NCBI GenBank assembly: GCA_030704615.1
Contig: CM060731.1
Coordinates: 49,972,001 to 50,036,000, forward strand
Direction of reading: 5' to 3'
DNA length: 64,000 nt
Origin: Takakia lepidozioides
Lineage: Eukaryota; Plantae; Bryophyta
This document shows, in pieces, positions 20,293 to 63,019 of this stretch. A model generated the notes under the pieces. The model was not told where the DNA came from and searched no databases. It saw only the letters and a program-made list of their open reading frames with translations. Each line of letters opens with the position of its first letter. Within the stretch, counting starts at the first letter, position 1. A program made the position numbers and the translations under genes.

Positions 20293-20501
20293 GAACAGAA
20301 TACAAATAGCGCGAGCGTACGTTGCCGCATCATTTATTTTTTAAGGTATTTTGTAACCTTGTATTACCGGCCCTTTGGTTACCTGTGATTCGTATACACT
20401 GTGGGTGTCACTTTGCGGCAGCAGCCCGGTTTCGTCGTCGAAATGCGTTTCTTCAACCAATACAGCGGGAAATCCGTATCTACAATTCTTTTTTAAAACA
20501 T

Positions 20502-27372: not shown

Positions 27373-27755
27373 GTGGTTCCCTCCAAGAAACAAGAACAAG
27401 AAATTGGAAGTGTTATGAGCGGAAGAGTCGGGGTGGCTCTGAATAGTCAGTGTCTCGACGGGAGGGGCAATCAAAGCACTAGCTTTGTGGCTATGGCGGA
27501 TGTAACGGATTACACGCTCGCTTTACTTCTCACGCAATGGCGTAAGGACGGACGAATTGAGAGTACATTTTCTCTCACTCGATACTTGCAAGCCCCACAG
27601 GCTTACACGCACTTACCTGTTCCATTCTGTGCCAACCATACATTTATGCTCTGTGCCCTGTAAGCTTTCCTTCAGCTGTTTCAAACAAGGCCTTTTTGTT
27701 TGTCTAGAATGAAGAGAGTGAGGGGAATGGAGGATATCAGGGTGAAGAGCACCAC

Positions 27756-28381: not shown

Positions 28382-28535
28382 TACACCACATCAGATACCT
28401 TTTAAACAACTTAGGCCTTCTAGTTGCATCTCTGCAATCTGCTCCCACTCTGGGTGTGCAGCGAACAGGGTAGCTTCCTGCTCCTCATCAAGTCCTCCCC
28501 TCCAGTCATACTCCCTGACCCTCGAGGCTTCTAGT

Positions 28536-29000
28536 CTACGTAGCAGGTATATCTTGTGCATCATCATGCACAGTTAGTAACTGGGAATTCCAGTCATGGA
28601 ATACCCTGGCCTGTTTCAGCCACGGTCGACCCAGCAATAAGGAGTAAGCTTCCATGACTTCATCCATTTTCAACACAGTTACTGTGATCATAAAGATCAT
28701 CTTTTGAATCTGTATCTTAACTCCTCTTATCAATCCCAATGGCTCAACACTTCTTTGATCTACCATTGTTACTGTAAATGGGGCTGATTTCATGTTACTT
28801 AGACCAAGCTTCTGCCTTAATTGGTCTTTCATGATATTCACTCCAGAGCCTCCATCTATCAGTACATCAGTTAGTTCTGTGCTTCCAATTCTCAATTGGA
28901 TTACTGGCATAGAATCATCAAAGTCCATGACTGTTTCTCGCCCTTCCGGCTTCACATTATAACTGGTCACCTTGTTGTTCAGGTCTGTGTTCCCTGTCAC
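28536..29000 (-). pseudogene. Gypsy aspartic protease
   Basis: VLIDGGSGVNI...LLLGRPWL. Confidence 0.9.
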
Positions 29001-29330
29001 ATGGCAATTCGATTGATTGTTTGATACAGCCTGTGTCTACAATAAGGTGCCACAGCCAATAGCTGTCCAATGGTAATCTCCGCTTTGGACTGGCATATTA
29101 CTTCAGCCAAAGTCCCTTCATTACTCTGCATTTCTGCAGCTTCTTTCTTCCCTTCATCCTCACTCACTTCCTCTTCTCTTTCAGAATCAGAGGAATCTGC
29201 CATAAGAATATCAGTACTCTTCTGCATTTCCCTTAGGGTATCTGCCACTTCCTTGTGCACTTCCTTCTCATCTCTCCAAGCCTCATCATCTTCAGGCACA
29301 TCACTGCCATCTTCATTATCATCACCTTCC

Positions 29331-31412: not shown

Positions 31413-32000
31413 GTCCCATGTCTTTCATTTCTTTAATGTGGCAATAACCAAAACTCTCTTCTGTAGTATCTCTCGTATATGCCTGGGTTTCTTTCAAGCT
31501 TCAATGCACCCTTGGCTATACTGGAAGTCTCCGTTACCATATAACCATATGGCAAATAAGTATGAAAAGCTGTTCTTGGTGTGAGTTTGATCCACAGAAT
31601 ATCCTTTGGAATCCAATTCTTTACCAGTACAAGCTCCTCATGCATATGAGTATAAACATTCACCTTCTTTTCCTCCCAGCCTTCAAACTCTACTCGCTTA
31701 ATGGATAGCAATGCTATCACATAAACCAGTGCTGGTAACCAATGTGCTCTTCCTCTACAGGCCACCTGATAAATCTTTATCACTCATTTCTCCAGACCCC
31801 ACTCAGGATCAGCATCATGTACTCTCTTAAGAATGTTTTCCTTACAACCATCTGGCAATTCCAAGAACCTCTGAAAGAATTGTTTGGACAATCTTTCCTT
31901 CTCAGTTCCACAGGGAATTTGATTCACATCAAATTCTTTAATTCTCCAACCACCATGATCCCACCAGATGCCTGTCACATCTGGTTGTTCATGACCCAGT

Positions 32001-33012: not shown

Positions 33013-36000
33013 CTTCGTTGGTTTTGTAGCATGCAGGATTGCACATGTGCCGATTGCATACATTCGGTAGTCTCGATACGTCGCGCGCAAAGTCGGCATG
33101 AAATGTTTTAGAGTGAACATCGGGAGGTCTGGTAGTGCACGGATGGATTTGGTGTTTCCATTGTTTTCTTTGATGTCGGGGTCAATGGTAGTGGTTGGAA
33201 TGTTTTCGTCAACTGGTATTTCGGATTGAATTGGATCAAGTCGCGTACTATGATGCTGTCCAAATATGCCAACATTTTTCGTTTGAATTTTTCGTTGTCT
33301 TTCAGTTTTTGTACGAGTTCGTTTGGATTTGGGGCATTTTCTAGCCACAACAATGTGTGTATGTGAAGTGAACCATTTTTCGCCGTTTCGTAACAACCAT
33401 AATATGCGTTAATGTTCCCAAGTACTCCCGTATTTGTTGTGGAAGTTTTGGCGGTCTCTCTGACACGTAGTAGGTATTTAAAAACTGCGTTCACGATGAT
33501 GTGTACAAATTTAGCTTGAGATCTCGGATTCGTAGTGACAATTGCACGTCTTTCATTGAGGTCCGGGAGGTTTTCGTCGAAAAAAATGTCAAGATTGATG
33601 TCGTTCCCACTTAGCAGGGACACCAGAGGATGATGTACAAATGCTGGATTTAAAGTGAAGAATAAGCTTGGTGTTTCCAACTATTGCATCATGCTGAATA
33701 TTTTGTTTCTCTGTATTGCGCGGCTGCTTCCAGATGCCATCACTTGTTTACTTGATACTTTCAAGTGACGTAATAACTTTTGAATTTCTGGTTTGTTGTT
33801 TATTGTTGTCACGTCCTCTATTATGTCGTTGAAGTCTTCTGAACGGATTTGTTGAGGAGTTGTGCTTCACTTTGAAATGATGATCTCGACACTGTCAGTT
33901 TTGCGCCCAGACATATTTGTCTATGTTGCATCAGATTGAACATGAAGAATGGAAATAAGTGGTGTTTCGAAAAGTCGTGATGGATATCAGTGAGACTCAT
34001 CAAATATTCAACGTGGGCCTCTAAAGTTACTTTGATTGGACGGTTTTTCATTTCGGTTACGCCGATTCCAAACGGAAATAACGTTGAAAACATGCATGCG
34101 ATTAGTTTAGGGTTTGCGTATTCGTTGACCATTTCGGTTTCGTGCGTGTATGACAAGTACATGTTTTTGTTGTAGTTGCAATCCATTTAAAGCGCTGGAG
34201 ATTAGGTCGTCATGCTTTATGTCTATTCCGTCAAAATCGATGAGTCCGGAGGTGTCTATGACGGGCTAGATCGTATTGTAGTTTTTGTTGATTGGTGTTT
34301 TTTTGTTGTGCAAATCTGTTATGTTGGTACGATGTTCAGCGTTGGCGAAATCAATGTCAGTGGATTCAAACACCGATCTCAAGATTGATGGTGGAATATC
34401 GTTCTCTGGTAGTCCATCCAATATGTCGTTATCAATTTGAATGTCCTTGTAACCCGTGTGATTTTTTTTCAGCCACGTTAACCAGGTCGTTACTGCAAGT
34501 CTACGTACGTATAGCAAATTACATGTTTTTACGACATTAATGGGTGGATGTGAAGTGCCGACGAAGTGGACGGCGACCATATCGGATAATGAATCTAAGG
34601 GGGTGGCAATTTGTTCAACAATTCGATTGCACGGCCTGGATTTTGAGCAAAACTCACCAAATTTCCTCTCAATGCGCGTTGTCCCTTTCCGCCTTTATTT
34701 ATATATCGTAATTTGAACAACATCACATGACAACGGTATCTTGCTATTAATGCTTCTTTAACCATAGTTAACTTTGGCAAAATGTCGTGAACTTTTCCAA
34801 TCCACAAACCATTGGCGAGTGCAAATTTTGGCATCTTGTTCTTTTTCAAGGTGGAACTGCAGGTTTTGCAAATGAAGATGGTATGTGCAATATTTGATAC
34901 TCCTCGTTTGTCCAATAACAACCCATTTAATTCGTCCAACTGATGTTTTGTGTCATTAATCAATTCTTGAGGAACCTCTTCTAAGAGAACATGTTGTTCA
35001 AAGTGGTTTTCTACTTGTAGGCTTAGCCACTTTTTCATGTATTTTACGATGTCGCTTTGTAGTTCATCGATGTTCCATTTGAACATGTTAGAGGCTGCTA
35101 CGTCTCTGCTGCAAACACAACAATACTGATTAGTGAAAGTTGCATTGCTGATGTATTCGTTGAAGTTGGATAAACAAGACAAGTTGTTCTCCAAACATAT
35201 TTATGGTGGGAACAGATTATTCTTTGGTGTTTTTGCAGGAGCGCAATACATTTGTTGTCGTTTTGTTTTGAGTTTTTCCTTCTCATCATTTTCGTTTGCG
35301 AATATATTTTCGAATTTGTGTAACACATGTTTGATCTTTGATCAATGGATCTTGGTCTTTATGGAATCTGTATTTTGCCCTTCGTTTGGCTTTTGTCTTT
35401 TCTTGATCGGAAGTTAATGGAGATTCGATTTCCGTGGCTTGTTGATTTTGGATCAATGGATATTGGGTTTTTTGAAATGCGTATTTTTCACGTCTTTTGG
35501 CATTTGTCTCTTTCGGATCGGGAGTCGGTTGAGATTCTATTTTTGTGGTTTGTTGTGGTTTTTCAAATCTGTATTTTTCCCTTCGTTTAGTATTTGTTTC
35601 ATCTCGATCTATTGTTATGGTTTGTGGTGGATTTTTTATTCTATAATTTTCCCTTCGTTTAGCATTTGTTTGGTCTGGATCCGGTTCCGTGGTTTGTTGT
35701 GGATTTTCAACTCTATAATTTTCCCTTCGTTTAGCATTTGTTTGGTCTGGATCCGGTTCCGTGGTTTGTTGTGGATTTTCGACTCTATAATTTTCCCTTC
35801 GTTTAGCATTTGTTTGGTCTGGATCCGGTTCCGTGGTTTGTTGTGGATTTTCGACTCTATAATTTTCCCTTCGTTCAGCATTTGTTTGGTCTGGATCTGG
35901 TTCTGTGGTTTGTTGTGGATGTTCAACTCTGTATTTTTGCTTTCGTTTAGCATTTGTTTCGTTTAATTTTTCTTTGTTTAAAGCATATTTTCTCCGTCTC

Positions 36001-36026
36001 TTAGCATTAGCAAGTTGTCTATCCAT
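33013..36026 (-). pseudogene. Helitron RepHel 5' part (repeat-rich N-terminus, DUF6570-like region, Rep/HUH)
   Basis: CCVC...CKTC...PKFALANGLWIG; LFPFGIG; PSLFFTLNP (motif 1); YETAKNGSLHIHTLLW (HUH motif 2); H-C-C then CRYGFP continuing across the gypsy insertion. Confidence 0.88.
35580..35960 (-). repeat. 72-bp coding tandem repeat (TNAKRRENYRVENPQQTTEPDPDQ)n
   Basis: Units start at 35651, 35723, 35795 and 35867, with degenerate flanking copies. Confidence 0.9.
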
Positions 36027-36229
36027 ATTAAACTTACGTTATACACGTAAGTTTTTTTTAATAAATAAATAATATTATTTATGTATACATTGGTATTTTT
36101 TATAGAATTAATAATGACCGTCCATGTAATGGAGATTTAGCTATTTGGAGCGAAATTTACCAATGGAAAGATAGTAAGGTGAAGGAAAATTTCAGGGGAT
36201 AAAAAGAGAGTTTGAGAGTAATAAGAGAG

Positions 36230-45683: not shown

Positions 45684-46097
45684 TCAACCTCGCAACCTCT
45701 GGTAAGACAGAAAGCTTTGTTGTGGAGGCGGGTTCATGATTGGACGGCCACTAGTCCAGGAATCTGGCCCAAAACTCCGAAAGTGGATCTCCCGATACTC
45801 TTGACAGATGGCACAAGGCCAACAAAACAGGTGGATCAGAGAGTCTGGCACTGGACCCCTGGATATGTTGTACTTAGACCGCAGTTTCTTCCGATACCCA
45901 CACGAGTACAAGCATCCTAGTGCAGTGGTCTGCTGGAGTAACCACCATACCAGTGCTGCAGTCAAGCAGGAGGTGTTGCCCTCATCCAAAGCTTCTGCGT
46001 TTCTTCCAAATGCGATGCATGGACAGAGACAAGTTAATAAACATATAGGAACATCGGCACAGCACTCAAAGAGACCAGTGCTCCATATCGGTTGATT
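45684..46097 (-). CDS. PLAC8 / FW2.2-CNR-PCR family Cys-rich protein, exon 2
   Basis: WSTGLFECC...CLLTCLCPCIAFG...YSCGYRKKLRSKYNI...HLFCWPCAICQEYRE; preceded by a CAG acceptor; stop at 45684. Confidence 0.9.
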   Translation of the reverse strand, partial: NQPIWSTGLFECCADVPICLLTCLCPCIAFGRNAEALDEGNTSCLTAALVWWLLQQTTALGCLYSCGYRKKLRSKYNISRGPVPDSLIHLFCWPCAICQEYREIHFRSFGPDSWTSGRPIMNPPPQQSFLSYQRLRG

Positions 46098-46691
46098 CTG
46101 CCAGCAACAACCATATAAAGTCTTCATCAACACAACAGCAATTTGAAGCTCTTCAAGTGTAAGCAAGAATGACCCAACTCCTCAGTTAGTGCAATTCCAC
46201 AAATTGCTTACACTACCTGCAGTGCTCCAGGATTGACACCAACCTAGAAAGAGTCCGCTGTGACAGCCAGCTTACCAGCCTATGTTTCATGGTATCTGTG
46301 CTAGAGCATAAAAACATTCCAGTTAGCCCAGATCAACAAGATTATTTTCAGTCAAGCACTTAGGGTTCTTCTTATCATGTTTTCTTTCTGCTGTTGTTTT
46401 CTGACAAAGTGATAACGAGCCTCCTTAGAGTCAGGAAAAGGAACACAGCAATCAGATTCTAAGGAAAACAACTGCCCTAATGTACCGCCCCCCCAATCGA
46501 TTACTTTGATTGAAAGATAAGCAAGCGCATATTGGAAACAATTACTCCTCAAAATGCCTCTATTCCTCTCCACTCTGAAACTTAAGCCTGAAGGCTACCA
46601 AGAGTTCTCGAGACAAACGACATCCCATGAATTATAATGTAAAGTCAAATCAAAGCTGCTAGCGATTTACCCTCCAGATAAATTACTGTAC

Positions 46692-47432: not shown

Positions 47433-48496
47433 CACCGGGACGGTTGCATCCCTCATCGTCCAGCTGGACGGTATAGGAGATCACACGTGTCAGTCTGCTG
47501 TCCCATGGTAGGCCCGGCCCAGATATGGGGTAGCTACCCAGGTTCCCGTTTTCTGGGAGTACAAAAGGGACGTCCGGGAGACCGACAGTAACGGCCGGGA
47601 GTCGCAGTCAGCAAATGCCTTTGCAGTAAGTAATTTAGGTTTTGGAAAAGTGCGGGACTGAGTCAACCCAGCCTGTGGGGGGCCGGAGTCGCAAGTTCCC
47701 TTTTTTGTCATTTCTGCATAGGCCATTCTTTTATTGGCCATTTATCGCCAAATTGCGACCTCTAAAAACTAAATGGAATATTCTGTCACAAATTCCCTGT
47801 TTTTTCATGGATGAAATTGCCAAAGTTCTCCAAATAAAAAATAAATTATGGATGAATTCGCCAAATATGGATGATATAAATGGATGAAAGTACAGAGATG
47901 GATGAATATTTTAGTGGATGAACAGGATGTAAGGCTATTTTTTGCAAGAAGCCAAATCAAGCCCAATCTGACCATGGAAACAGCCTCGAAATGCGCAAAA
48001 ATATAGATCATTAGCATACACAATAACAGAGAAACATTGAATTCAAATACTTTGGGTGGAAGTCTATTATTTAATCAATTGCCACGAATTAGATAATGTC
48101 ACATATGATGAGTTGGATCTTGCCACGTATCAATCTTGGACGATTGGTCATAGTTAGATATTACATTTCTTTTTTCTTTTTTAAAGAAAGGGGTCGTAAC
48201 AAGTGTTGGGCTGGTTGTCGTGCGCATACGTAACGCAACACAACTACATCGCTGTCCAAACCACACCACACATATATGCACAATAAAGTAGTCTACCACA
48301 ATCGCCCCCATAGCTGGTGGTTAGGTCCCTCTACCTCCAGATAGCTACAAGATGTAATAGCCGGGTACAAGTGTAGCCCCATCGTTAGTCGCCGTCATGC
48401 AATCTGTGAACTTGAGCCAAGATCTCGTGTGTTCAAGGTCTCCTAGTAGCTGGGCCTTGCGTTTCTTGTTAGCCTTCCATGGTGTATCCACTTTCA

Positions 48497-48799
48497 CTAT
48501 CCAATGCAATGTGGACATAACCAATCCCCATCCGGAACCATCTCAAGAGGTGGTGTCAAGCATCCCATATGCCAACCTCGAGAACATCGATCACACACCA
48601 GCATGGTGGCTGCCCCTCTAGCAGACCCACACAACATGCACCTCAAACCTGCAGATACCACTGCCAGGTTTGGGTCAATCCTGCCATAAACATTCGGAAG
48701 GTGACATGGCGCACAATTACGCACATGGTCCTTCCAAGTTATGTCATCCCGACCCTCCAAGACCAAGACGCCTGAGGGCAAGACCTCTCGAACCCTCAA
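48497..48799 (-). pseudogene. Integrase C-terminal region with PHD finger
   Basis: CMLC-x11-CDRC-x4-H-x2-C...PDGDWLCPHC: C4HC3 PHD consensus. Separated from the integrase by one in-frame stop. Confidence 0.9.
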
Positions 48800-48808
48800 A
48801 ATAACACG

Positions 48809-51479
48809 TCATGCAGTCACATCCAGGGTCGTAGGAGCAGTCTGCTGCAGATAGACATAGTCACCAGGGTTGAATCTCCGAACCCCAGGACGATAGCCCC
48901 CACCACGTATGGTAGCATACGTCAACGTATCACGGTGTTGGGCAATGGCAAGGTTCTCGAAAGCCATGGGCATGACTCTCTTGAACAACTCTGCACGCTG
49001 CTCACATGCACGTGCCCACACGTCCGGATCGTCAATGTTAAGAACTGTAGCAGCTTTTCTGCGAATGGATGTAGGCAAATCCGGCTCTCGGCCAAAGAGA
49101 AGAAAGTATGGTGAGAAGGAAGCAAGTGATGCTTGCTTGCTGAACCTGTAGCCCATGGCTAACCAGGGTAACTGAAGGTCCCAATCTCTTAGGTGTCCCT
49201 TTTGCAAGCCATACTTGCGCAAACCCCTCTTTACTGTCTGAACAACTCTCTCTGCCAAGCCATCGGCCTCAGGATGATCCCGAGAAGTGGTGCGGTGGTC
49301 TATCAAGGCATTGTCACAGAAACTCCCCCAAGAACTCTCTCCCTTGGTCCGTGAGTACCTCAGCTGGAGCACCGAATCGGCTAAACACACAATCCAAGAA
49401 TGCATATGCAACTCCCTCACTAGCCTTATCAGGCAATGGAACCAATTCAATCCACTTGGAGAAGTGCTCCACCATCACCAACACGTACTTGTTGTGGCGC
49501 ATGGTCAATGGCAACGGCCCTGCGAAGTCAAGACTCCACCTGTAGCCCAATCCCATGATCGGAAGAGGGTGCAATTGTGGAGTAGGGGCGTTGAATGAAG
49601 CACGCACCCTGTCACACACCATGCACCTAGCCACAAATTGTTGCACCTCTATGTGCATACCACGCCACCAATACTGCCCCTGCAGTAGACTATGAGTGCG
49701 TCGCATCCCAAAATGCCCCAACTCCTCATGGGCATGCCGCACTAACCGTGCCCGCTGTGTTGGGTGAGGCACAATCCTCATTCGACCATCCTCCCACACT
49801 CGGAGCAGGTGTGTCCCCTCCCACTTGAACCTCTTGGCTCGTTGTAGGATCCGATCTCTCTCATTGGCAGTCACAGTGGCTGCAGTGTCTCCAGTGCGGA
49901 GGTAGTCCAACACAACTGAATCCTCATGTATATCTTTGGCGCCACCTTGTTCATTGCTGGCCTCAGGGTCCTCAGACACTTGATCTACAGTCATCCCTGT
50001 TGCAGGTCCAACCTGGCCTTCCGCTGCCAAGATACACAGAAATGCAGATGCATGCCATCCAGGCACCATCTCCTCGTCCGTCTCACCATGCCACCGAGCT
50101 CCAGTATCATCCTGCTGGCTCGTGCATGGATTGCGACTCAACCCATTTGCATTGCGATTGACCAAACCCGGTCGATGCACCACTTGAAAGTCATACTCTT
50201 GAAGGATGAGTGCCCACCGTGCAAGCTTCCCCGTAAGCTTGTCTGACTCCATCAACCACTTGAGTGGTTGGTGATCCGTGACAAGGGTGAAGAGATTGCC
50301 GTATAGATAACACCTGAAGTGTGCCACGGCCCACACTGCAGCTAAGCATTCTCCCTCATATGAGCTATACTTAGACTCTGCAGCATTGTTCGAGCGGCTA
50401 GCATAAGCCACTACGAACTCTCTTCCCTCATCATCCACCTGTGTGAGCACCGCTCCAAGCCCCAGCATGCTCCAATCTGTATGTAGCTGAAAAGGACGCC
50501 CCCTAATAGGTCGTCTCAAGATGGGCGTCGAGGTCAACCTCGCCTTGAGCTCTTGAAAAGCTTGTTCTTGCTCATCTTCCCACTGCCACTCCTGGTCCAC
50601 CTTGGTCAGCTTGGTTAGAGCCTTTGCAATGGCACTAAATCCCTTAACAAACCGTCTGTAATAGTTTGCTAACCCCATGAAAGCTCGAACTCGGCTCACA
50701 TCCGTGGGGCGTGGAACCTGTGCAATGGACTCTACCTTAGTCTGCTGTATCCCCAATCCTCCAGGATATATCATGTGACCCAGATACTCAATTTGGTTGT
50801 GGAAAAACTTGCACTTGCCCGGATGTAACTTCAATCCGTGCGTCCTCAAGCGCTCAAATACCCCTTGAGGGTGTCTCTCATGCTCCTCCACCGTAGCACT
50901 AAAGATGATGATGTCATCTATATAGCACCGAGCAAACTCCACCCCTGCTAGAATCCTGTCCATGACTCTTTGAAACTCAGCGGGAGCGTTTTTAAGCCCA
51001 AATGGTAAGAACCGCCACTGGTATAGGCAATCCTTCCCGTGCTCATTGATCCCCCAGAATGCCGTCTTTTGCTTATCCGCCTCTTTGATCGGCAACTGGT
51101 GATATCCGGATCGTAAATCCAAAGTGCTAAAGACCTTGGCATGCCCAATGGCATCAAAGATCTCCTCTGGTGTGGGCATGGCATACCTATCGGACTTGGT
51201 CTGACGATTTACAGGCCGGTAATCACCGCACATACGTCTCTCCGTCCAATTGCCATAGACATCCTTCTTGGCTGGCATCACTGTGGCTGAAGCATACTCT
51301 CCACCAGAGAGCTCCACCAAACCTGCCTCCCAGAGATCTTGAGTCCTCATCTGAATCAAAGACCTCTCCATGTCACTGTATCTATAGGGTCTCCGAAAGA
51401 TTGGCGTGTCAGTGGCCAACTCAATACGGATCTTTGACCCTTCAGTGCTCCCAAGTCCTTCAAACTGAAGGCAAAGCAA
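48809..51479 (-). pseudogene. Gypsy RT, RNase H and integrase (one frameshift near 49315)
   Basis: RMCGDYRPVN, LDLRSGYHQ, LPFGLKNAPAEFQR, YIDD, HTDWS, YSSYEGECLA, TDHQPL, HEELGHFG..CMVC, WSLDFAGP, TDQGREF, HPEADGLAER. Confidence 0.95.
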
Positions 51480-51622
51480 TTCCTGTAAGCCCTCAGGAAC
51501 CGCCGTATACGTCGTCTCTCTCCTCCGGTGACAATGGGTCCAATGTCAGGCTCCCAATTGTCCTCTGTAACTGCAACCTTAAGTCCAGTGGGCTTAGAGG
51601 TAGAGGACGCGTCCCGTGGTTG

Positions 51623-53620
51623 CTATGCTGCAACCTCTTGAGCAGTACTCCCTTCCTGCTCAGTCAATGACAAGGCCTCATCCTGCCCCATCATCTCATC
51701 ATTGAGAACCTCCTCAACCCGAGAAGAATCCCCAACCTCATCCATCACAGCGGCCTTGGCTGCCAACTCCCTCTGAACCTCGAGCACCTCCCACGTGTGC
51801 CATGGATGTCTATACCCCGTGGTCCTCACCGGCTCGCCCCCACTCGCTGCCTGTACCGTCTCGGTAGGCAGAGAGACCGTCAAGGGAAGTGCACTCCGCA
51901 CTCTACGTTGCTCAGCCATAGCCAAGCTGATAATCCAGGTCAAGCAATTGAGATCCATTGCTTGCCCCAACACCTGACGACGTGATGCCTCAGAAAGAGA
52001 AGGCACCGCCGTGGTCCCAATGGAAAACCCCATAGCCCGCTCTCGCTCGTCGGCATTGGGCTCCACTAACTGCTGCAACTGAGCATCCCACAGGAGGCCA
52101 GGTCCACCATCCCGAAAAGCATGGGATCCTGGGAAGCTGAGCAGTGTAGGTAATGTTGTTCGTGGTTGACCCACCCTGTTGACCACTGCCAAAGGCGAAC
52201 GGTCGTGGTGTCTCACACGTTGAGACTGCCTCCCTGTGTCCAAAATGCTATCCACTGTGAGGTGTGCTGGCCGCTCCACCCCATCAAATGCACGCTTGAG
52301 CAGTGCGGGTGGCATCAAGTTAGTCCACCATAGCCGTGGACGATGAGCCCGTGACCCCACTGCAGCTGCATCCAGCAACACTGCTGACCCAAGCCACGAC
52401 CGGACTTGATGCACACTGGCCATTACCCTGGCCCGAGAATCACCCATCAGTGGCACATTCTCCAAGATGTATGTGGGAGATACAGCTTGATGAAGCTGCA
52501 AGTAGCGCAAAATCCGCACCATCTCCCAAAACAGACCCGTCCTCGAGTCCCGCAATCCATTGCCATGCCCGGCTGATGAATACCCTTGGCAGGGCCAACC
52601 TGCCACTACCATATCAATGGAGCCAACCTGCACCCCCAGCAACGCAATGTCTGCTGGCAAGGCTTGCTGATATCCACGAACTGCAGACACCGGCAACAAC
52701 TCAGGGTACTGCCGCACCATCTGAGCAACATGGCGCAGTGAGACGCGTCGTGCAGTCTCATCCCTCTCCATATACAGGTAACGTCGAACTCGTACACCTG
52801 CCTGCAGCACTGCAGCCAATCCAGTGCTGATCCCGCCAAACAAGTCCAGAAGGCATATGCCTTCATCCGGGCACTGCCACACAAGAGGTGTGGTGTCCAA
52901 TGGCGACAACTGAGGGGGTCCTGGTGCAATCACCGCACTCTCCTCCTCTCTTGACGGTACAAAAGCGTCCACCCAAGCTTGTTGCACCCGTCTATCAGCA
53001 GCCTGCTGCAAATCCTTGCTCGTACCCCACAATGGAGTGTGAGCAACCATGGCAGGCAACTCCGCCGTACCATGCATGTCATCCTGCTCTGCTGGAGGTG
53101 GCACATCCTTTGCATGGGCATTGCCTTCCAGCAACTCTCCAGGCCAACTAACTGCAGCTGTAAAGGCGGTTAGTGTTGGCATCTTGCCCCGCTGGGCAAC
53201 CGCAATATCCCCAATGAATGTCACAGGGAGCTGTGCACGGCGACCATCCCCTGACTGCCATCCAGGCCTGTAGGATGCTGACTCCTCCCAAAAGTCCAGG
53301 GTAAAGCCCATGGGGTATAACACTGCCCCACCAACGAGAACATCGTAAGAGACCGCGTCTGTCACAATGGCCTTGGCTCGCATCACTGAGCCATCGATAG
53401 GATGATCCGGCTGCAGTCTAATGGCCAACTGATGCCGTGTCATGCCCCGAGCCTGCTCTGATCCTCCCAAAGATGTCTGTATCTGGAAAGGGCAAGGCTC
53501 CATATCCGCCTCCATGAGGCCCAAACCTGCAATAGCAGCTCTGCCCAACATCAGTGGCTGAGCTCCTGAGTCCAACAAGACCCAAAGTGGCCGGTACTTC
53601 TTGCCTGCCGGTCCATTCAA
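51623..53620 (-). CDS. Aspartic protease fused to a DNMT3-like C5-cytosine DNA methyltransferase
   Basis: Protease VLLDSGA (~53570). MTase ~52858-51925: motif I LDLFGGISTG, II YMERD, IV AGWPCQGYS, VI ILENV, VIII AHRPRLWWTN, IX ERERAMGF, X RRQVLGQAM. One uninterrupted 665-aa frame. Confidence 0.92.
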   Translation of the reverse strand: MNGPAGKKYRPLWVLLDSGAQPLMLGRAAIAGLGLMEADMEPCPFQIQTSLGGSEQARGMTRHQLAIRLQPDHPIDGSVMRAKAIVTDAVSYDVLVGGAVLYPMGFTLDFWEESASYRPGWQSGDGRRAQLPVTFIGDIAVAQRGKMPTLTAFTAAVSWPGELLEGNAHAKDVPPPAEQDDMHGTAELPAMVAHTPLWGTSKDLQQAADRRVQQAWVDAFVPSREEESAVIAPGPPQLSPLDTTPLVWQCPDEGICLLDLFGGISTGLAAVLQAGVRVRRYLYMERDETARRVSLRHVAQMVRQYPELLPVSAVRGYQQALPADIALLGVQVGSIDMVVAGWPCQGYSSAGHGNGLRDSRTGLFWEMVRILRYLQLHQAVSPTYILENVPLMGDSRARVMASVHQVRSWLGSAVLLDAAAVGSRAHRPRLWWTNLMPPALLKRAFDGVERPAHLTVDSILDTGRQSQRVRHHDRSPLAVVNRVGQPRTTLPTLLSFPGSHAFRDGGPGLLWDAQLQQLVEPNADERERAMGFSIGTTAVPSLSEASRRQVLGQAMDLNCLTWIISLAMAEQRRVRSALPLTVSLPTETVQAASGGEPVRTTGYRHPWHTWEVLEVQRELAAKAAVMDEVGDSSRVEEVLNDEMMGQDEALSLTEQEGSTAQEVAA

Positions 53621-53757
53621 AGTGAAAATGCCTCCCTAGTTGTCTAACAAGAGAACTCCAGGTGTCACCATGGCGCGCTCAAAGGCTGGCCTAGCTGACA
53701 GCTCCGTCAACCTGGCAGCTGCAGCTTGCCATGGCGCAGCCGTGGCAGTCTTGACCC

Positions 53758-55797
53758 TCAAATCCGAGGATCCTCTGCCACTACACTTTCCACTAACTTC
53801 GCAGAAGATGAAGTGACATCCCCACTCTCACAGAGTGTTGCTGCTAGTCTGAACACTGCAGCTGGTCTCACCCCCGGCGTCGCAATCATTGTTGCCGAGA
53901 ACAGTGGGGCCTGACACACAGAGGTGGCTGCCCCCAACAACACACTGGCTGCACTAGCCTTGGCAGCAGGTGTCAGTGTTGCACGTGTAGCTCTCCCCAA
54001 TGGCATAGAAACCTCCGCCTCAGTAACAGTCGGGCAAGAACTAGGTGCCATGGATGGCGTTGACACTGTCTCCGCCAAGGTGAATGACTGAGGCAGCCTC
54101 GCCTGACGGCTTGCCTCCCCACATTGTGGATCCAACTCCACCTCTGCACCTCGTGGCTCAGGAACTCGTGCTGCTCCTCGAGTCACGGCTGCAGCAGACT
54201 CCACCTGCTCTAGTGGTAGTGCTGCTCCGCACATGAATCCCATGCCTCCCATATCTCCTCCCTCAGGAGCAGGAGGTGGACCATCCCGCCTGGGAGCCGG
54301 TACCGCCTGAGCTATAGCCATGGCAGCGAGCCTCTGCTCTAGCTGCTGAAGCCGATTGGCCATGCCTTGATCAACACCCTGACCTCCGCGTCCTTAGCCA
54401 TGTTGAGCTTGGCCTTGGCCTGCACCTCGTGCCCGACCACCTCGTCCTCTCTGGGCTGGTCCACCTCGCCCCCGGCCACCATTGTTCCCTTGGAACTGGC
54501 CTGGGCGCAACTCAGGATGCAAGTCATAACACTGGGCATCTCCATGCCCATACTTGCCACAATGCCCACACTGCAACTGTGCAGGTTGTGCTTGTGCCGG
54601 CCTTCTGCCATTCTCTGGGCAATCTCTCTTGACATAGGATCCTCCACATGTCCAACATATCACCCCTGGTTGTTGTTGGCCTGCAAAAGACACCACGGGC
54701 CTCTGCACCTGAGGTCCCCTATAAGCTCCATGGAACTTGGGCTGGGCAACCTTGCCCCCCTGACCACGTTGTTGGGCAGTCCCTTGTGCCTGTGGGCTGG
54801 CAGGTGCGCCTCGTGCAGGCATGTCCTTGCCAAATCCAATGGTAACAACTCACTCCTCCACCATGTTGAGCTCAATCCGCTCAACCAGCAGAAACACATC
54901 TGCTTATGTGGGTTGGGCTGCTTGTAACAGGGTTGCATCTCGCACCCTTCTCTTGAGCTCCTTGTCCAGAATTCCATACCAAAACTGGATTGCCTGAGCT
55001 TCAGTAACCCCTTGGGTCACACTTATCAAGCGCCTCATACGAGTGTACGCCTCTCGCAGGCTCTCACTGGGTTTACGCTGGAAGTCTTGCAAACTTCGCA
55101 ATTTCTCAGTCCGTACACCTTGGTAATTCCTCCGCAACTCCTGGAAGAACTCCACCACCGGGCTGAATCTAGGCACATATGTTGTAGTCGTGGGAGGATG
55201 AGTAGTAGCACCTTCTGCAGAAGTACTGGCACCACTTGTTCCACTACTAGTGCTAGTCGTGGGAGGTATTGGTGCTGATGCCGCCACTGGTCGCGTTGTT
55301 CCTCGAGTAATGGAGACGTAGTCAGGTGACCAATACATCCTCCACTCCTCAATTTCTGCTTCATGTCCTCGCCTGAACTCGTGGTAATTGTCCATAGGCG
55401 GGCCTTCCAAATGCTGGAACAGTCCCTTCCACGCCATGAATGGGATGAATAGCTGTGGATTGCGCATCTGCTGCAAATCACACCAGTTGTCAAACTCCTG
55501 GATAAAGTCATCCAACTCGATTGTGCCCACAGCTCCAGAGTACCTACGAGGCCCCTTGGTAGCTCCATACATCTCCTCCATGTCGTCCCACAACAATGGC
55601 GAATGAAACTGAACACCTGTTGATGAAGCCTCCGAGTCTGTGTCTGACTCTACAGTAGTTGAGGGTGGAGGTGAAGGTGGTCTGAACCGAATACCTCGTC
55701 TTGTGAACCCACTCTCACTGTTACTGCCTGTAGCCGTACTCCCCTCAAAACCCTTGGGTAACTCCGTGATGACACTCACAATGTGCACCTCTTCCAC
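53758..55797 (-). pseudogene. Gag of the DNMT-bearing gypsy (frameshifted)
   Basis: YSGAVGTIELDDF, FQRKPSESLREAYTRM, FWYGILDKEL; knuckles CWTCGGSYVKRDC and CGHCGKYGHGDAQC. Confidence 0.8.
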
Positions 55798-56317
55798 GTG
55801 ATACTATAGGGCTCTAGTACTAATTCTAATAGTGACACGGGTGGGCACCTGTTGCAGTTTAAGGGTCAGATTCCAATGGCTCAGGGCACCTGCACCTGCA
55901 TCCACCGCAAGAACTCCTATGGTTGGCTGGTCATCAACCCAGCCTCACCATAGAAGAAACACTGGTGGTCTTGCTGGTCATCACTCCAGTCTCACCACCG
56001 ACAGCATACTCTAGGATTGACCGGTGATCAAATCCGGCCTAATCCCTATGAAAGCAAACGCCCACACAAAACCAACATGGCGCACAGTCAAGCATGCATG
56101 TGTTGGGGGGGATCCAAACGCAAGAAATCAAAACATCAACACCCCCACACCAAAATCCAGCTGCAATGCTGATCCTGCAGAATAGCCCAGCCCAAAACCC
56201 TGGACTGACTGGCCTCCACCAAGAGAGGCTTTGGCAACTACAAGTACAAGGTAATGAAAATAGTACAGAGATGGAGGGGAAGAATAGGAGCCCGACCAAG
56301 CAAGATCTAATCCTGAT

Positions 56318-57067
56318 CTATGCTATCAACTGCCAGACTTCTCTCAAAGTGCCTCGCTCTGCATGATGGTAAGGTGTAGGAGGTATATCTATGTCCAGAA
56401 ACCTGCCACTAACCTTGTCCCAAGCTACAGTAGCTCGCTCTAACCAACCCTCCTCCTCTTTCTGCCAGGTAGAGACAAAGCAATACTCCCCTATCTCCCG
56501 CTCACTGAACACTAAAGAAAACAAAGGTAGGGTCTGATAGTCTCTCAACTCGAAAGCTTTGAGACGGTTGCGGGTGTCCTCATTGCGAATGACTGCATCT
56601 CCTTCACGCACAACAAACATATCATTGCTAATGAACCCCTGCTCGTGGTAGCCCTGTGCAGAGCGTATCCGGCTGCAACCATGTCTGATTGCACAAACTT
56701 GTGTAGCTCCTGCTCCTCTGCTCCAGTACACCACGGCCTTGTGGCTGAACACCTTGGTCCCCGGGGCTGTCTTTGGCTGTGTTCCAAGCCTAGCTTTCAC
56801 CCACTTTGGTATTTCACCTACAGCTGCAGAACTGCTGGCTCCAATAGAGTTCTGACTGTCCAAGGCGATATTGAGGCTCTCAATGCCAACTACAGTAGTC
56901 TGTTGTCTACTGCTAATGCCTGACTCCCAGTATGCAATCAACTCGTCTAACTGTTCTCCACTCAAATCAGTCTGAGTTCCTTGGGAAACATAAATCTTGT
57001 CCCCTTGTGTGCACAGGCTAAGAGATGAGACCTGCCCTTCAATTACGTCCTCATTTTCCCCAGCCAT
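56318..57067 (-). CDS. Hypothetical 249-aa ORF upstream of gag in the DNMT-bearing element
   Basis: Open ATG-initiated ORF, same strand as gag, between the putative PBS and gag. No motif recognised. Confidence 0.5.
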   Translation of the reverse strand: MAGENEDVIEGQVSSLSLCTQGDKIYVSQGTQTDLSGEQLDELIAYWESGISSRQQTTVVGIESLNIALDSQNSIGASSSAAVGEIPKWVKARLGTQPKTAPGTKVFSHKAVVYWSRGAGATQVCAIRHGCSRIRSAQGYHEQGFISNDMFVVREGDAVIRNEDTRNRLKAFELRDYQTLPLFSLVFSEREIGEYCFVSTWQKEEEGWLERATVAWDKVSGRFLDIDIPPTPYHHAERGTLREVWQLIA

Positions 57068-57412
57068 ACAAGGAGTACATCCCCAGATTTATCTCTCATG
57101 TAGACCAGAACAGGTTCTAGAAACAGGATTGTGGGTCTTTCATGGCACACTCACACTCTAAAAATTCCATAGATTTCTAGCAGAGTCCCAAAAACAAAAA
57201 CCAGGTCTAAATAGGTAGATATCCCATTTCTGCAGCTATCCCCTCAAAAACTGAGTCAAACGGAGCTCATTTGACAAAGATATGACCAACCAGGCTCTTT
57301 AAACATAACACCAATTTTTTTTTATTTTTTTTTATTTTTTATTTTTTTTAACACCAAAACGTTCTCGCCATTACAACCTGTTCCCAGGTTATCTACGGGT
57401 TCCCGAGGCCGT

Positions 57413-57434
57413 TCCCCCCGACAGGACTTCGCCA
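57413..57434 (-). promoter_or_regulatory. Putative primer binding site TGGCGAAGTCCTGTCGGGGGGA
   Basis: TGG-starting GC-rich motif at the point where element-like sequence ends. Cognate tRNA not identified. Confidence 0.4.
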
Positions 57435-58363
57435 GTGAGATTCATAGTCCCTTGGGAGGCATTGAACGGTCTTTAACCAGCCAAGGGATAGATCCGGCAC
57501 GGACTGTCAACTCAGCCTCTTCAGTGCAGGTGATTAGAGGATCTGTTGTTGCTGTCATGGAGGTGACAAATGAGACTCAAGGAGCAGATGGAGTAAATGG
57601 AAACACTGCCAAAATACTGGCTGCTGTAGTGACTTCCAATAGGCGACCAGCTGTGTCAGACTCCGAAGATGATGATTCAATCTCATGGTCAAGTTCAGGC
57701 AGCGAGGAGCATAACCGGAAAGAAAGAAGAAGTATCACAGATGAAGGAAAAGAACAGGTGAGTGTATCACGAGCATCTGCAGATGGCGTGGTTATGGACT
57801 CTCACCATCAGTTTGACCATTCTGGAAGTTCTGGGAGTTCTCTAAGGGATGCAGAGCTCCACTCTCAAGTGCCTGTGGCAGACACTGTATCAGAAGTGTA
57901 TTCATCTCCCAGCATAAACACACAGGGCTTTCTTGCTGGCGACATAGCTCCTGTTCCTCTACTCATAACTGAGACTGTCCGTTTTTCAAGTGCTGATAGT
58001 GGTCGTAGGGGGCGATTGGCAGGGGCTGCCGAACTGGGCATTAAGGAACTCTTCACATACTGTACAGATTGCGAAATGGTGCCAGCCACTTTGTTCATAA
58101 CGCCTTCCCCTTGCTGAGGCCTTGAAGTAGAAGTTGAATCAGTTGGGCTGCCTGTCAATTGACCCACTTGCTCCTTGAAGGCGTCCTTGGCCAACACTGC
58201 AGACTGCGTAAGGCTATCGCCTCGTTTCCCTTCGCTGATCAACCATCTCTCGCACTCATCTTCGCCAATTCTGTTGTACAAATTTGTGGTACACCACACT
58301 AGGCCTTCTTTGCGCACAAGCTTGCCATTGTTGGGATTTTAAGAGCAACCCACCTCGCACAAA

Positions 58364-58750
58364 ATGGCCGAAAATTTCCAAGATGCGTCATCCGAGACAC
58401 TCGAGGAGGCCGGTGACGCTGTGCAGCCTGTCAACGAGCAGCTCGGCCATTTGAAGCGAGGACAATGTGAAAACCGCAGCCGATGCGACACCGCTAACCA
58501 GGCTTTGGAGTCTTCCGGAGATGGAACCCGGAGCAGCATACACGAGGCACAAGGTGCTGCACTGCCAGCGGAAGACCAAGTCTCACAGAAGCTGAGCTTG
58601 GCGAAGGAGAAAGCCGGGGCCGGCATTCACGAGTTGAAGGCTGCTGCCCATAAACGTGCTCATGACCGTGTGGGAGGCCGTGCCTAGGAGGGCAAAGGAG
58701 CTCTGGAGCAAGGCTTGGCGACTGTGCAAGATGCACTGACGAAAGGGGCT
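58364..58750 (+). pseudogene. LEA-like hydrophilic protein fragment
   Basis: Ala/Glu/Lys/Gln-rich helical repeats (SQKLSLAKEKAGAGIHELKAAA) with an internal stop. Compositional evidence only. Confidence 0.35.
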
Positions 58751-59055
58751 ACTGCCGTTTCAGAACGACTAGCATAGGTAAAAGACTCGGCCACCGACAA
58801 CACTGGTGAAGGAAACTACACTGTAAAAACAGTAGACCACCAAACGGGGGCCGAGACACATGACAAGCCAGGGCTGGTGCGTGATGTCCCTATTGACGTT
58901 GCGCATGAAAACGCAGACCAAAAGCCAACCACCCTTCTCCAGTCTTTTACTGGTGTCATCTCCCAAACCACCTTGTCTGTCAAAGGGGCTTTCACCTCCA
59001 GCAATAGTCTTCCCTTCCTCAGCTGCCTTGATAGCCTGAACAGCTTGAATAGCTA

Positions 59056-59193
<138 letters not shown>

Positions 59194-59339
59194 TCAAACT
59201 CACGCGCAGAGACGACAACTAAATCTGCGCGCACAGCCCATGACAACAGCAGGGCCAGAGGGACTCCTGCCCCAAAATATATATTATAATAGTGCTAAAA
59301 CAAACATTGTATCTAGCTTAGCACCAGCACACTAGATAA

Positions 59340-60780
59340 CGGTCATCTCTCTCGAGTGATAAACAAGCTAAAGACACACACTCTCCACACAAGAAACAAC
59401 ATGAATCCATCGCTATCACTCTTAAAAACAGAAGTCGAGCCAGGGGCACCCCAAGCTATGGGGACTCCACCCCACAACAACCTACACTCCCATCATAAGC
59501 ACTCTCAGTCCTAAACGATGCAGGAGCTCGGTCGCGCAGGCTCAACTCGAGAGAGATGAGCTGCGCGACTGCCGCTCTCGTGAAGATAAGACGGGTCAGG
59601 TGTCAAACTAAACTTGACACCTGATTTAACACTTGACCTAAATCCAAATGTTAAATACAAACAACTAGCTTTATTCTAGCTAGTTTCACACTGTGCTTAT
59701 TTAACTTGACATGGTATTGACATTTCAACATACCAACCTCATACAAGTATTGGAATTTAGTCAGTCTGCACTATTTACATGATCCTAAGTATTTGTACTA
59801 TTCATGAATGCACATAGTAGGACATATCAAAGATGGTATAAATCTAGAGTCCAAAGTTCATCTCAAATCTGATATCAATTTGGCATTTCCCGGGAACCTT
59901 ATATCCGTTTGGTCCAATATCTATATATGTAATCTTAAGATTGTGAAGAAAATCAAAGATTTTTTCTCACACATTAGTACGTACTAAGATGAATAATTTA
60001 TATAGAAAATAACAAAGCAGTGAGTTATTGCAGTGGTAATGCAATTGATGCATCTTGCTATATATGCGTACTACATGGTCATACCACTAACAAGCGAGAA
60101 AAACTTTGTCACAAAGGTATGAATATGTGTCACTGCAAGAGAGAACACTCAGGTAGGATAGACAGCAATGTCGTTTTGAGTGGAGGCGGTAGGCGAGCCA
60201 AGTTATCGACATTAATTTTTGAATCCGAGACCAATTGGATAAGGTTTGACCTACCGGCGTGTATTGTTGAGAACCAGTCACAACCATATATATCATACCA
60301 ACAGTGGTCGCAACTGATTGATAAATATTCATCATAATAAACTACAACGCTCGAGAAGTCGCACATCACATCATAATTCTGAAACTAGCTAACTAGCTAG
60401 AGTTTATCTAGTTATTTATATTTTAATATTTGTGATTTGTTTAAACGTCAAATCACGTCTCAAATTATCTTGACACCTGGAAGGTCTTATTTTCACGCTT
60501 CTGGTCGTGAACCTCATCTCTCTCAAGTGATAAAACACCTACTCATACAAACTACTCATAAAATTCTATCACTCATATAATATGTCAAGGTTGGGCACCC
60601 CAAGCTATGGGAATCCGCCGCACAATAACACATGTCATCTCTCCATAAATACATTTAAACATAACACACAGAGAACTCGGTCACAAAAGCTCAATTAAAA
60701 AAAAATTAGTCTCGCAAACACAAACACAAACACAAAGGGATGTAAGACCTTAGTTTGATACCTGATTTAGTATGTCAAAT
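59340..60780. repeat. Composite direct/inverted repeat structure
   Basis: 59343-59625 is repeated (diverged) at 60516-60770 (tcatctctctc.agtgataaa...gggcaccccaagctatggg). 59546-59610 is inverted at ~60465-60530. Confidence 0.6.
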
Positions 60781-60792
60781 CATGTAGACGAT

Positions 60793-61114
60793 ACGTGTCA
60801 CATCCGGGGGCTCACACGTTTCATGGAGACGCCTCTCCATGTAGGCACTTTGCTCTAGTGATGCAGTCGTACCTCAGTCATAACATTCAATCCTGTAGTC
60901 ATATATTTATGACTACATCACGAAACCCTCCATCACTAAGCGTCGATGGCAAGTGTCACGTCCTTAGTGATGACCATGACTTCGCACTTATCACTCCGTA
61001 GTGATGGTAGAATTGACATAGTTTTTTTCACTGCAGAGTGAGGTAGCCATAAAAGCATTTGTCATTGCAAATGCAGTGATATCCGTAGTCATAAAACGTT
61101 GATCTATAGTAGTT
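60793..61114 (+). mobile_element. Degenerate right end of a CACTA related to 8817-13846
   Basis: acgtgtcacatccgg...gacgcctctcca...ttttttcactgca.agtga...gtcataaaacgttgatctatagtagt aligns to 13546-13846. Confidence 0.75.
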
Positions 61115-63019
61115 TCAAGTATTAAAATATAAATAAATAAGTATATTCTAATTTTGACAGACTTTTATGACTATAATGTGTTTGTGTGTGGGTTGGATAG
61201 CGATGTAGTTGTGTAGTCATACGACATCATTGTAGTTGTATATGGTTTTGTGACCTTTGGCCATCACAAACTGGGTTTGTAGGCGGGGTGGGTGAGATCC
61301 CATTTGCAGTGGTAGGGGCGTTGCAAATCCCCTCTGTGATATATTAGTGGGTGTATAACTACTGTCACACCTAAATGAACATCTCAAACATGATATGTAT
61401 TATTGTTTTGCTTACGAATGACGCATCGTCTTTCATCTCTCTTGCTCATTCTTGCGATCAATTTTGCTACATGATTGTTTGTGTTAGATGTACAATATAT
61501 ATGTTTCATTTTGATCTTGTGGTAAACAAGTGCATAATATACATGCCAGCCCTGCCCTATGTTGGGAATGATTGTGTATTTCATTACACTTATAATAACT
61601 TTTCGATGGGCAGTGTACAACAATATATGAACAAATCAATAAACGCATTCAATAGGTGTAAATCATTTTTGAGGTCTTGAAACTTTTGCCACTTCAGAGA
61701 CCAAATACAAACTTTTGCTTTGAATCTCCTTGGTGATTGCTCATGGCTGATGGTTGATTATTTATAGTTGATGACAAATATATAAAAATACAAATGTACG
61801 AGTCAAAAGTACTTTGCATTTTGCCTAGAAATTGTGACGGCTAAATTTTGCTATAATCACAGTCATCTATGGGGTCATCAACGTGACCTGTCAAGCAACA
61901 ATTCAAATTATTCAAGTCCCACCAATGAATCAGCTCCACTTGCAATTTGAGGGAGATTCTTGACGCAATGTCTCCACGACAATACATGCAACCATCCACA
62001 ATCTTGCCTATCAAGCCAATTTTGCTACCAAGTTAATATTGACGTGAAATCACAAAGTGCACGTCCAGGCCATTTGAGGGAGAACCTTGACGTTGTATCT
62101 CGATGATCTACAGTTACGGTCTTGCTTGTCAAAGTATTCTTGTTGCTGTGGTAAACTCCTTCCATCAAAGAGAGCCGAGGATATGTAGAATCATTTTTTC
62201 CTTAAAGGCGTATTATTGGTCATGGTGTCAGGGCCTTAATATCAATGAAGTATAAATTTGCAGTAACCAAACAAAGACATTCACATGTGCAGATTTGAAG
62301 CTGCCACCGAACATTACAAGTCAAATATTGTGATGCAGACTATGGCAAGAAGTGCATACCATAAATCTAAGCTTTACTCTCTACTGTATTATTGGTTTTT
62401 CACTAAGACTCAGCTGTATTTTATGCTCCATTGGAAGCTGGACAAAGGATAAATTCAATCTTGTGATTCCCCTTTGACAAAGTTAGAGTACTCTGTTCAA
62501 TTCTGATCAGTATTTGGTCTTGCACAATATATTTTTGTCATTGAACATGTTGTGTTGATGGAACCAGAACTACATAACAGACTCTATTTTTGAATTGTGA
62601 ATCATATAGGGTCCCTGCACAATGTGATGTAAGACTAAGTTCTCCACCAATGGGATATTCCCTTTTACGGGACTTGGGTACGACAAGGGGAAATAATACG
62701 TAGAGAAAACCTGCATAGTTGCATAGAATACCCAAGAAACCCAATTTTATGCTATTTATACCTAACTAGAATGGATAGGATAGAACTGACTGGTTTATGG
62801 ATTTTTCTCTCAAATTAGGATTCTATCTAGAATTACAATTGAGAAAAGGGTTGCGCCACCCCGTTTGCGGGGCTCCACCTAGTGAGCGTCACCGCCTCCT
62901 TGAGTGCCTTCGGCACTAAAGGGTGCTTCAGCCCCCTTTCCTATTTGCTGTCACTGCCCCCACCACAGGGGCAGTCCCTCTTGTGTCCCGACCCCCCGCC
63001 CTCAAGGCAAAGGGCCGCG

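Follow-up and report, generated by a model that had tools for sequence, protein, structure and literature searches.

The window analysed here, a 64,000-nucleotide stretch of contig CM060731.1, contains a decayed copy of a land-plant Ty3/Gypsy retrotransposon family that carries a DNMT3-like C5 cytosine methyltransferase (DNMT) domain between its protease (PR) and its reverse transcriptase (RT). Gene order, substitution ratios and trees support the view that this DNMT3-type, unpermuted methyltransferase is a fixed and selected component of the family. The kind of element is already known from Klebsormidium; what appears to be new are the land-plant members, a conserved and likely leaky stop codon between DNMT and RT, and a PHD finger. 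With moderate confidence, the window copy is read as a decayed element of the form A-coding-B (A and B being its terminal segments), in whose family the DNMT would be made at capsid level through low-rate readthrough and would likely methylate the element's own cDNA before or at insertion.

A minus-strand open frame at positions 51623-53635 encodes 670 residues from stop to stop; the 665-residue frame of an earlier first-pass annotation is the same one counted from a later codon. It reads from the protease motif LLDSG into LDLFGG, WPCQ, ENV, AHRPR, ERAMGF and LGQAM, and the DNMT motifs I, IV (PC), VI (ENV), VIII, IX and X run from 52840 to 51964 in canonical, unpermuted order. The Pfam profile PF00145, which the first-pass annotation had proposed as a check, matches with E 1e-12. 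In a sequence ranking against solved structures, DNMT3A comes first (2e-11), ahead of DNMT3B (6e-8), DRM-type enzymes (2e-5 to 1e-4) and HhaI (2e-4). Consistently, DNMT3A is also the top fold match of a predicted model with a pLDDT of 72 (E 3e-16, TM 0.64/0.77). Both rankings place the predicted domain nearer to DNMT3 than to DRM, DNMT2 or bacterial enzymes, and the earlier call of a DNMT3-like domain not permuted as in DRM holds. The domain had also been called complete, which is true of the motifs only, because four residues just before motif IV are absent from the window DNMT and present in the 18 aligned relatives that span the site. Pfam found no DUF3444 match in the window DNMT, and the domain is flanked by PR and RT, unlike the stand-alone, multi-exon host DNMT3 of plants. 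Counted by alignment column, the catalytic Cys is kept in 24 of 25 full Gag-PR-DNMT proteins and the Glu and Asn of ENV in all 25. In unbroken copies the DNMT is thus predicted, with good confidence, to be catalytically active.

The element spans positions 48216-59711 and is flanked by an exact 4-bp target-site duplication (TSD). Its domain order of gag, PR, RT, RNase H (RH) and DDE integrase (INT) is that of Ty3/Gypsy elements (Table 1). RT, RNase H and integrase do follow the DNMT, as first reported, but not in the same open frame, because a stop at 51623-51625 closes the DNMT frame and a break follows near 51433. Likewise, the DNMT is embedded between PR and RT as claimed, but on the Gag side of this conserved stop rather than within pol proper, which changes its expected abundance. 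The window gag is 51% identical to the Marchantia protein P0004 over 611 columns. The Pfam match of the protease is weak in the window (E 0.02) and better in the related locus L059 (E 2e-4); a query of the protease against PDB sequences gave spurious repeat matches only. Pfam detected no tyrosine recombinase in the element, and both an rve integrase and a protease are present, so that it is unlike DIRS/PAT elements. The copy is decayed because a premature stop precedes the protease, three stops interrupt gag (54906, 54852 and 54396) and gag has a frame break near 53770. In the best-supported rows, contigs of other copies depart from the window at several of these decay sites. Neither this decay nor the split termini had been noticed in the first-pass annotation, and the PHD finger with which the integrase frame closes had been missed as well. 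The solved PHD fingers closest to that of the window are those of CHD4, PHF12, KDM5B/KDM5A, ATXR5, KMT2C, PHF21A and DPF3. Most such fingers bind H3K4 in its unmodified state, a task performed in animal DNMT3 by the ADD domain. To judge from these resemblances, the PHD finger plausibly reads histone H3 with unmethylated K4 and steers insertion away from active promoters.

The domain is not peculiar to this copy. Named relatives come from Calypogeia fissa (73% identity) and Marchantia polymorpha (59-71% where most of the domain is covered), from M. paleacea, Riccia sorocarpa and Sphagnum, and from Klebsormidium nitens (46%). Among the metagenome loci (L numbers; the best 80 of 176 relatives from a metagenome scan), PR lies upstream of the DNMT in 53 of the 60 loci with enough flank and RT downstream in 52 of 59, and 40 of the 46 loci with both flanks have the order PR-DNMT-RT. 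From run X1, which represents the window's own organism, 86,064 contigs lie on the element, mostly at 90-99% identity; their depth is not used as a copy number. All 30 element bins are covered in runs X1, X5 and X6, and a single contig of run X7, tentatively taken as an RNA run, extends from RNase H across RT into the end of the DNMT. A search of viral contigs for relatives gave one weak partial match only. One family member, protein P0088, carries the label of a bacterial metagenome-assembled genome (Obscuribacterales) and is probably plant DNA binned into a bacterial genome.

Selection on the DNMT is purifying between lineages. By the Nei-Gojobori method (18 pairs), dN/dS is 0.14 at a dS of 0.25 for L059/L060, 0.12 for L059/L067 and 0.10 for window/L005, and it lies at 0.10-0.20 in the other between-lineage pairs with finite dS; the neutral ratio that would have spoken against the first-pass claim was not found. 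Corresponding values are 0.09-0.27 for the protease and 0.04 for RT, so that the DNMT is similar to or below the protease and above RT. Dead copies inside the Sphagnum-type family have a dN/dS of about 0.5, DNMT and RT alike. Quick trees of the DNMT (62 rows) and of RT-RH (43 rows) recover the same groups, and the group with the stop has a support of 99 in both, which indicates that DNMT and RT are co-inherited.

Behind the DNMT frame of the window, the RT N-terminal region resumes in frame after the stop and continues until the break near 51433. Among 55 aligned DNMT-RT linkers (56 less L014, left out for length), 53 have a stop at the homologous site, and 45 of the 56 preserve the phase from end to end. 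The arrangement is clearest in L059, where a Gag-PR-DNMT frame of 1369 residues ends in TAG-CAG-TTA and an RT-RH-INT-PHD frame of 1047 residues follows in the same phase, this being the sole stop between them. The codons behind the TAG are CAA-CCA in the window and L007, CAG-TTA in L059 and L060, and CAA-TCA in L067, all conforming to CAR-YYA. These five copies have stop-free DNMT domains, and those of the L loci are about 46-65% identical to that of the window. The TAG-CAR-YYA context is unique among the TAGs of L059 (101), L067 (75), L060 (28) and L007 (74). On the minus strand of the window there are two such sites among 733 TAGs, one of them the DNMT-RT stop, and the context is absent at six other stops checked in the window element. 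Furthermore, 31 database proteins consist of GAG-PR-DNMT with nothing recognised behind, and full-length proteins, including those of Marchantia and Calypogeia, mostly end 57-160 residues past the DNMT. By these comparisons the DNMT-RT stop is not a product of decay. CAR-YYA directs readthrough in tobacco mosaic virus (TMV) and suffices for it in plants (PMC2754532, PMC2194720), and readthrough at UAG-CAR-YYA is very probably how the RT frame of this family is reached. Given readthrough, protease and DNMT are expected at the level of Gag and RT-integrase at a few percent; a 20:1 rule is quoted in PMC2194720. An amplified subfamily of TAA-bearing copies, whose existence would argue against splicing, was considered and rejected, since such copies are scattered on the tree.

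A pair of long terminal repeats (LTRs) was sought within the window and not found. In relatives, a segment A of about 340 nt lies before gag and a different segment B of about 115 nt behind the polypurine tract. B is the last segment in 19 of the 26 loci that have it (four of these look internally deleted), three continue as A-B to give A-coding-B-A-B (L041, L047 and L051), one runs into A at the contig end and three are too short. Seven relatives have both ends, and their 4-bp TSDs are exact in four and within one mismatch in six. The left end of the window copy was located through a search for the right-flank sequence adjoining TGACA, with a chance expectation estimated at about 0.03; it is independently backed because the bases behind A are, over 15 nt, a perfect complement of a site inside A. 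Since the window A is not alignable with the Sphagnum-type A (score 36 versus a shuffled mean of 35), it was assigned from the TSD, the end motif and the self-priming hairpin. Primer sites of the tRNA type begin with TGG, which that of the window does not. Self-priming of this sort has been described for Tf1/Sushi and Tcn1 elements (PMC6317226).

Self-primed reverse transcription likely yields a linear BA-coding-BA cDNA. Such a cDNA is implied by the primer site and the polypurine tract, yet the inserted ends sit at the B|A junction. The sequence of this junction, CACGACA-NN-TGTCAYG, is conserved across lineages (the Sphagnum-type family, L059 and L067), and the A|B joint reads CA-GT-TG in two of the three A-coding-B-A-B copies, with a filler of about 20 nt in the third. 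A somewhat better than even case can be made that the integrase cuts the palindromic B|A junction, so that a one-LTR circle would give A-coding-B and a two-LTR circle A-coding-B-A-B. The strongest competing view, less probable but to be taken seriously, is that the native form is always A-coding-B-A-B and is copied as in PAT elements, the A-coding-B copies being later deletions between B repeats without any integrase-cut circle. The same arrangement is found in DIRS/PAT elements and has been noted for K. nitens (PMC5890265), the two B copies lie only about 340 nt apart, and 4-bp TSDs occur on both forms. However, a ratio of 19 loci with B only to three with B-A-B (plus the one at a contig end) is much to ask of recombination over about 115 nt. 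The element also has a DDE integrase and no recombinase match, and the polypurine tract and primer site put the cDNA ends at the start of B and the end of A, not at the inserted ends. Beside the element, at about 60380-61227 on the plus strand, short repeats match parts of A and B, and part of A is apparently inverted at the self-priming repeat; this is likely a small deleted relative of the element.

In the favoured reading, the self-primed RNA would be translated into Gag-PR-DNMT in bulk, and readthrough would add the full polyprotein with RT, RNase H, integrase and PHD finger at a few percent. The packaged DNMT would methylate the new cDNA, and the PHD-guided integrase would insert it at ends derived from the junction. 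The first-pass annotation had proposed cleavage from the polyprotein, packaging and cDNA methylation, and all three are inferred. The benefit of methylation to the element may be camouflage or self-restraint.

Several observations weigh against parts of this reading. A single family, grouped with Sphagnum proteins, supplies most of the metagenome loci, and about nine rows seem to be the same insertions assembled repeatedly; because of this, the independent lineages are few (window, L007, L059/L060, L067, Sphagnum type and Marchantia). The trees are quick and unrooted, have no host DNMT3 outgroup and include 24 RT-RH-DNMT proteins, a subset of those found. The stop in Marchantia and Calypogeia is deduced from protein ends, not from DNA. 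An early Met lies behind the stop in L060 and L067. The 50 Sphagnum-type linkers mostly have CAA-CCC (five of six bases, the final A missing) followed by ATG, so that re-initiation stays open in these copies. No conserved RNA structure was found behind the stop (z -0.7 to -2.2). Self-priming complementarity of at least 10 nt is present in only 6 of 16 Sphagnum-type A copies, and recombination between two B copies can also make A-coding-B. CpG observed/expected (o/e) in the element is 0.51, as compared with 0.17-0.34 in a DNMT-free Ty3/Gypsy element and 0.58 in a Copia-type element of the same window. Finally, the homologue from K. nitens left yeast DNA unmethylated, an outcome that the authors of the study call inconclusive (PMC5890265).

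The last two points bear on the substrate. Because CpG depletion in the element is no stronger than in the DNMT-free elements, composition gives no sign of extra methylation; CHG depletion is likewise uninformative. As composition lends no support and the algal homologue was inactive in yeast, the proposal that the element's own cDNA or insertion site is the main substrate of the DNMT stands at little better than even. It is possible, though doubtful, that the architecture is as described while the DNMT does not act mainly on its own cDNA but works in trans, with host chromatin or competing elements as its targets, or has the role of a particle protein that binds nucleic acid. The lack of extra CpG loss and the inactivity of the Klebsormidium domain in yeast (PMC5890265) would fit such a role, production at Gag level would suit a structural part too, and the position of the domain is not fixed, since 35 other proteins carry it elsewhere, in the order RT-RH-DNMT-INT-PHD. 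Against this, in both architectures the catalytic Cys, ENV and RxR hardly vary, and for this reason selection probably acts on catalysis itself. Fusion to Gag would also carry a domain into the particle together with the genome that is being copied. Moreover, related DIRS-borne DNMT3s methylate CG de novo (PMC5890265).

An improbable alternative accepts the stop as genuine but has the RT frame reached through splicing, an internal promoter or re-initiation instead of readthrough. In its favour, the AG of TAG resembles a splice acceptor, an ATG lies three codons later in most Sphagnum-type copies, and the gag-pol junction of Candida Tca2 has promoter activity in a reporter (PMC2194720). However, across distant lineages all variation in the six bases behind the stop stays within CAR-YYA, and the sequence upstream is coding and not U-rich (AT 0.45-0.50). 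In three of the five lineages checked (window, L059 and L007) the stretch from the stop to the conserved landmarks of the RT N-terminus has no Met, and most linkers stay in frame across the stop, as described above.

The window contains PPR fragments, and the elements nearest in the tree come from liverworts and Sphagnum. A PLAC8-family host gene adjoins the element at 45684-46181 (minus strand), its best named matches being from mosses at 64-69% (15 matches among 25 candidates). Judged from such sequence context, the host is a land plant, probably a bryophyte, in agreement with the land-plant setting that the first-pass annotation had suggested and not with an algal or contaminant contig. The chance landing of a host DNMT3 retrocopy or foreign gene in one dead Gypsy copy, or an algal or contaminant contig, to which the decay of this copy and its other captured host sequence might have pointed, is refuted by the order shared among loci and named liverwort proteins, purifying selection, congruent DNMT and RT trees, the host contigs on the element and the moss-like neighbour gene.

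The closest known system is KnitGypsy-Dnmt3 of Klebsormidium nitens, whose repeats are DIRS-like according to a figure legend (de Mendoza et al. 2018, PMC5890265). The first-pass annotation had mentioned retrotransposon-borne DNMTs from Klebsormidium and dinoflagellates, which matches that paper. Both have an intronless, unpermuted DNMT3-like domain in a Ty3/Gypsy element under purifying selection, and the split repeats of the alga resemble the A-coding-B-A-B form seen here at family level (PMC5890265). The K. nitens protein P0052 has the order PR-DNMT-RT-RH-INT, with 46% identity over 71% of the domain. By similarity the two DNMTs belong to the same subfamily, and P0052 falls outside the stop-type group of the unrooted trees. 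In the alga, however, the DNMT is described as lying in the open reading frame (ORF) of RT (PMC5890265) and the P0052 model is stop-free, whereas here the phase is the same and a conserved stop lies between. The present family occurs in land plants, with many copies in the window's host, and has a C-terminal PHD finger, of which the partial P0052 shows none; the term PHD does not occur in the main text of PMC5890265, nor do Marchantia and Sphagnum, which also have no row in its species table. SymbioDIRS-Dnmt3 likewise has a DNMT3 in a retroelement with A-coding-B-A-B ends and methylates CG in yeast, but it is a dinoflagellate element with a tyrosine recombinase instead of a DDE integrase, and its authors regard it as an independent capture (PMC5890265).

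Plant host DNMT3 (PpDNMT3b, MpDNMT3b) shares the canonical motif order and the DNMT3 type; the host genes described end in DUF3444, whereas the window domain has no DUF3444 match and lies within a polyprotein. The moss host enzyme carries out de novo CG and CHH methylation (PMC6453930, 10.1101/2021.02.12.428880), which by analogy suggests CG and CHH as likely sequence contexts of the element DNMT. In-frame UAG with CAR-YYA, or ORFs split by an in-frame stop, are known from TMV, SIRE1, MuLV and Tca2; those stops come directly after gag or after pol, whereas the present one comes after protease and DNMT (PMC2754532, PMC2194720). Tf1/Sushi and Tcn1 also have a primer site complementary to the predicted RNA 5' end, but they have ordinary LTR pairs and chromodomains in place of split ends and a PHD finger (PMC6317226). 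EpiLTRs and DAM-LTRs are LTR elements with a methyltransferase and a chromatin reader as well, although the DNMT they carry is a sister of DNMT4, is accompanied by DAM and a chromodomain, and is found in Cymbomonas and Euglena (10.64898/2026.05.21.726589). Such elements are mentioned in 'streptophytes' without land-plant detail in the available text of PMC12344493 and 10.64898/2026.05.21.726589, and the available text of PMC5784723, PMC11982613, PMC11244446, PMC6453930, PMC9516144 and 10.1101/2021.02.12.428880 contains no such element. The literature search returned no account of land-plant members, the DNMT-RT stop or junction integration in the text available, and prior notice in supplements or Repbase is possible.

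Other architectures occur among the relatives. DNMT and RT share one predicted frame in P0052 and seven more tree proteins. The 35 complete RT-RH-DNMT-INT-PHD proteins (e.g. P0040, P0041, P0043 and P0044) form a separate clade with a support of 98-99; all 35 keep the catalytic Cys, and Glu replaces the motif IV Pro in 17 of them. A tentative wider reading, rather unlikely as a whole, is that a PHD-bearing green-plant Ty3/Gypsy clade has kept a DNMT3 since before land plants. Its land-plant branch would load the DNMT at capsid level via a leaky amber codon and methylate its own cDNA, and its DDE integrase would insert circles by cutting the palindromic junction, most insertions being pre-silenced and unable to copy again. 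The sister clade would have moved the DNMT between RNase H and integrase.

Table 1 Features of the element, in window coordinates
Feature	Position	Strand	Remarks
Left 4-bp target-site duplication	59712..59715	.	identical to 48212-48215
Terminal segment A	59357..59711	-	355 nt; TGTCA start, CA end; single in this copy
Predicted RNA 5' end (self-primer)	59545..59559	-	15-nt perfect complement of primer-binding site
Primer-binding site	59343..59356	-	directly behind A; predicted self-priming type; does not begin TGG
Captured plant monodehydroascorbate reductase gene fragment	59056..59193	-	5' region; PDB E 1e-13, PF07992
256-residue open frame	56318..57088	-	no known family; upstream of gag
gag	53758..55803	-	two zinc-knuckle-like motifs; PF03732 E 5e-4
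Aspartic protease	53240..53599	-	LLDSG; premature stop 53636-53638 precedes
DNMT3-like C5 cytosine methyltransferase domain	51905..52900	-	motifs I-X; catalytic Cys codon 52591; 4-residue gap near 52628
Conserved in-frame stop, predicted readthrough site	51617..51625	-	TMV-type context TAG-CAA-CCA
Reverse transcriptase and RNase H	50193..51616	-	PF00078, PF17917, PF17919; frame break near 51433
DDE integrase	48809..49790	-	zinc finger, core, C-terminal part; PF17921, PF00665; frame break near 49318; stop 48809-48811
PHD finger	48497..48670	-	ends integrase frame; PF00628 E 2e-11
Polypurine-tract-like sequence	48302..48315	-	common to relatives
Terminal segment B	48216..48300	-	85 nt; TGTGG start, CACGACA end
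Right 4-bp target-site duplication	48212..48215	.

Upstream of gag, the 256-residue frame is covered by related contigs in four runs and is absent from the 80 metagenome loci; neither Pfam nor an Atlas search gave a lead for it. Besides the reductase fragment, the 5' region at 57275-59193 has two plus-strand frames without a family (57275-58117 and 58343-58687), and these frames and the fragment are probably captured host sequence. Elsewhere in the window, the DNMT-free Ty3/Gypsy element at 24563-31424 is split into two oppositely oriented pieces and shows strong CpG loss. The Copia-type element at 4542-14730 has a terminal repeat pair of 97-98% identity and PPR fragments inside and beside it. 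Frames at 17688-20340 and 33108-36038, one of them with a 72-nt tandem repeat, are presumably pieces of Helitron Rep/PIF1-helicase; CpG o/e is 1.1 in 17688-20340, unlike in the retroelements.

As of 2018 there was no settled answer to why retrotransposons retain cytosine methyltransferases, and the algal hosts are awkward to work with. With relatives in Marchantia polymorpha (at least 10 'hypothetical' proteins), this question can be asked in a model plant for which methylomes have been published and DNMT3/CMT knockdown lines exist. From the stop codon, each particle is predicted to contain many DNMT molecules. The split ends point to a Ty3/Gypsy integrase that may act on the circle junction, and tools that search for LTR pairs would overlook such elements. 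Furthermore, DNMT-like gene models derived from such elements can distort counts of host methyltransferases in bryophyte genomes.

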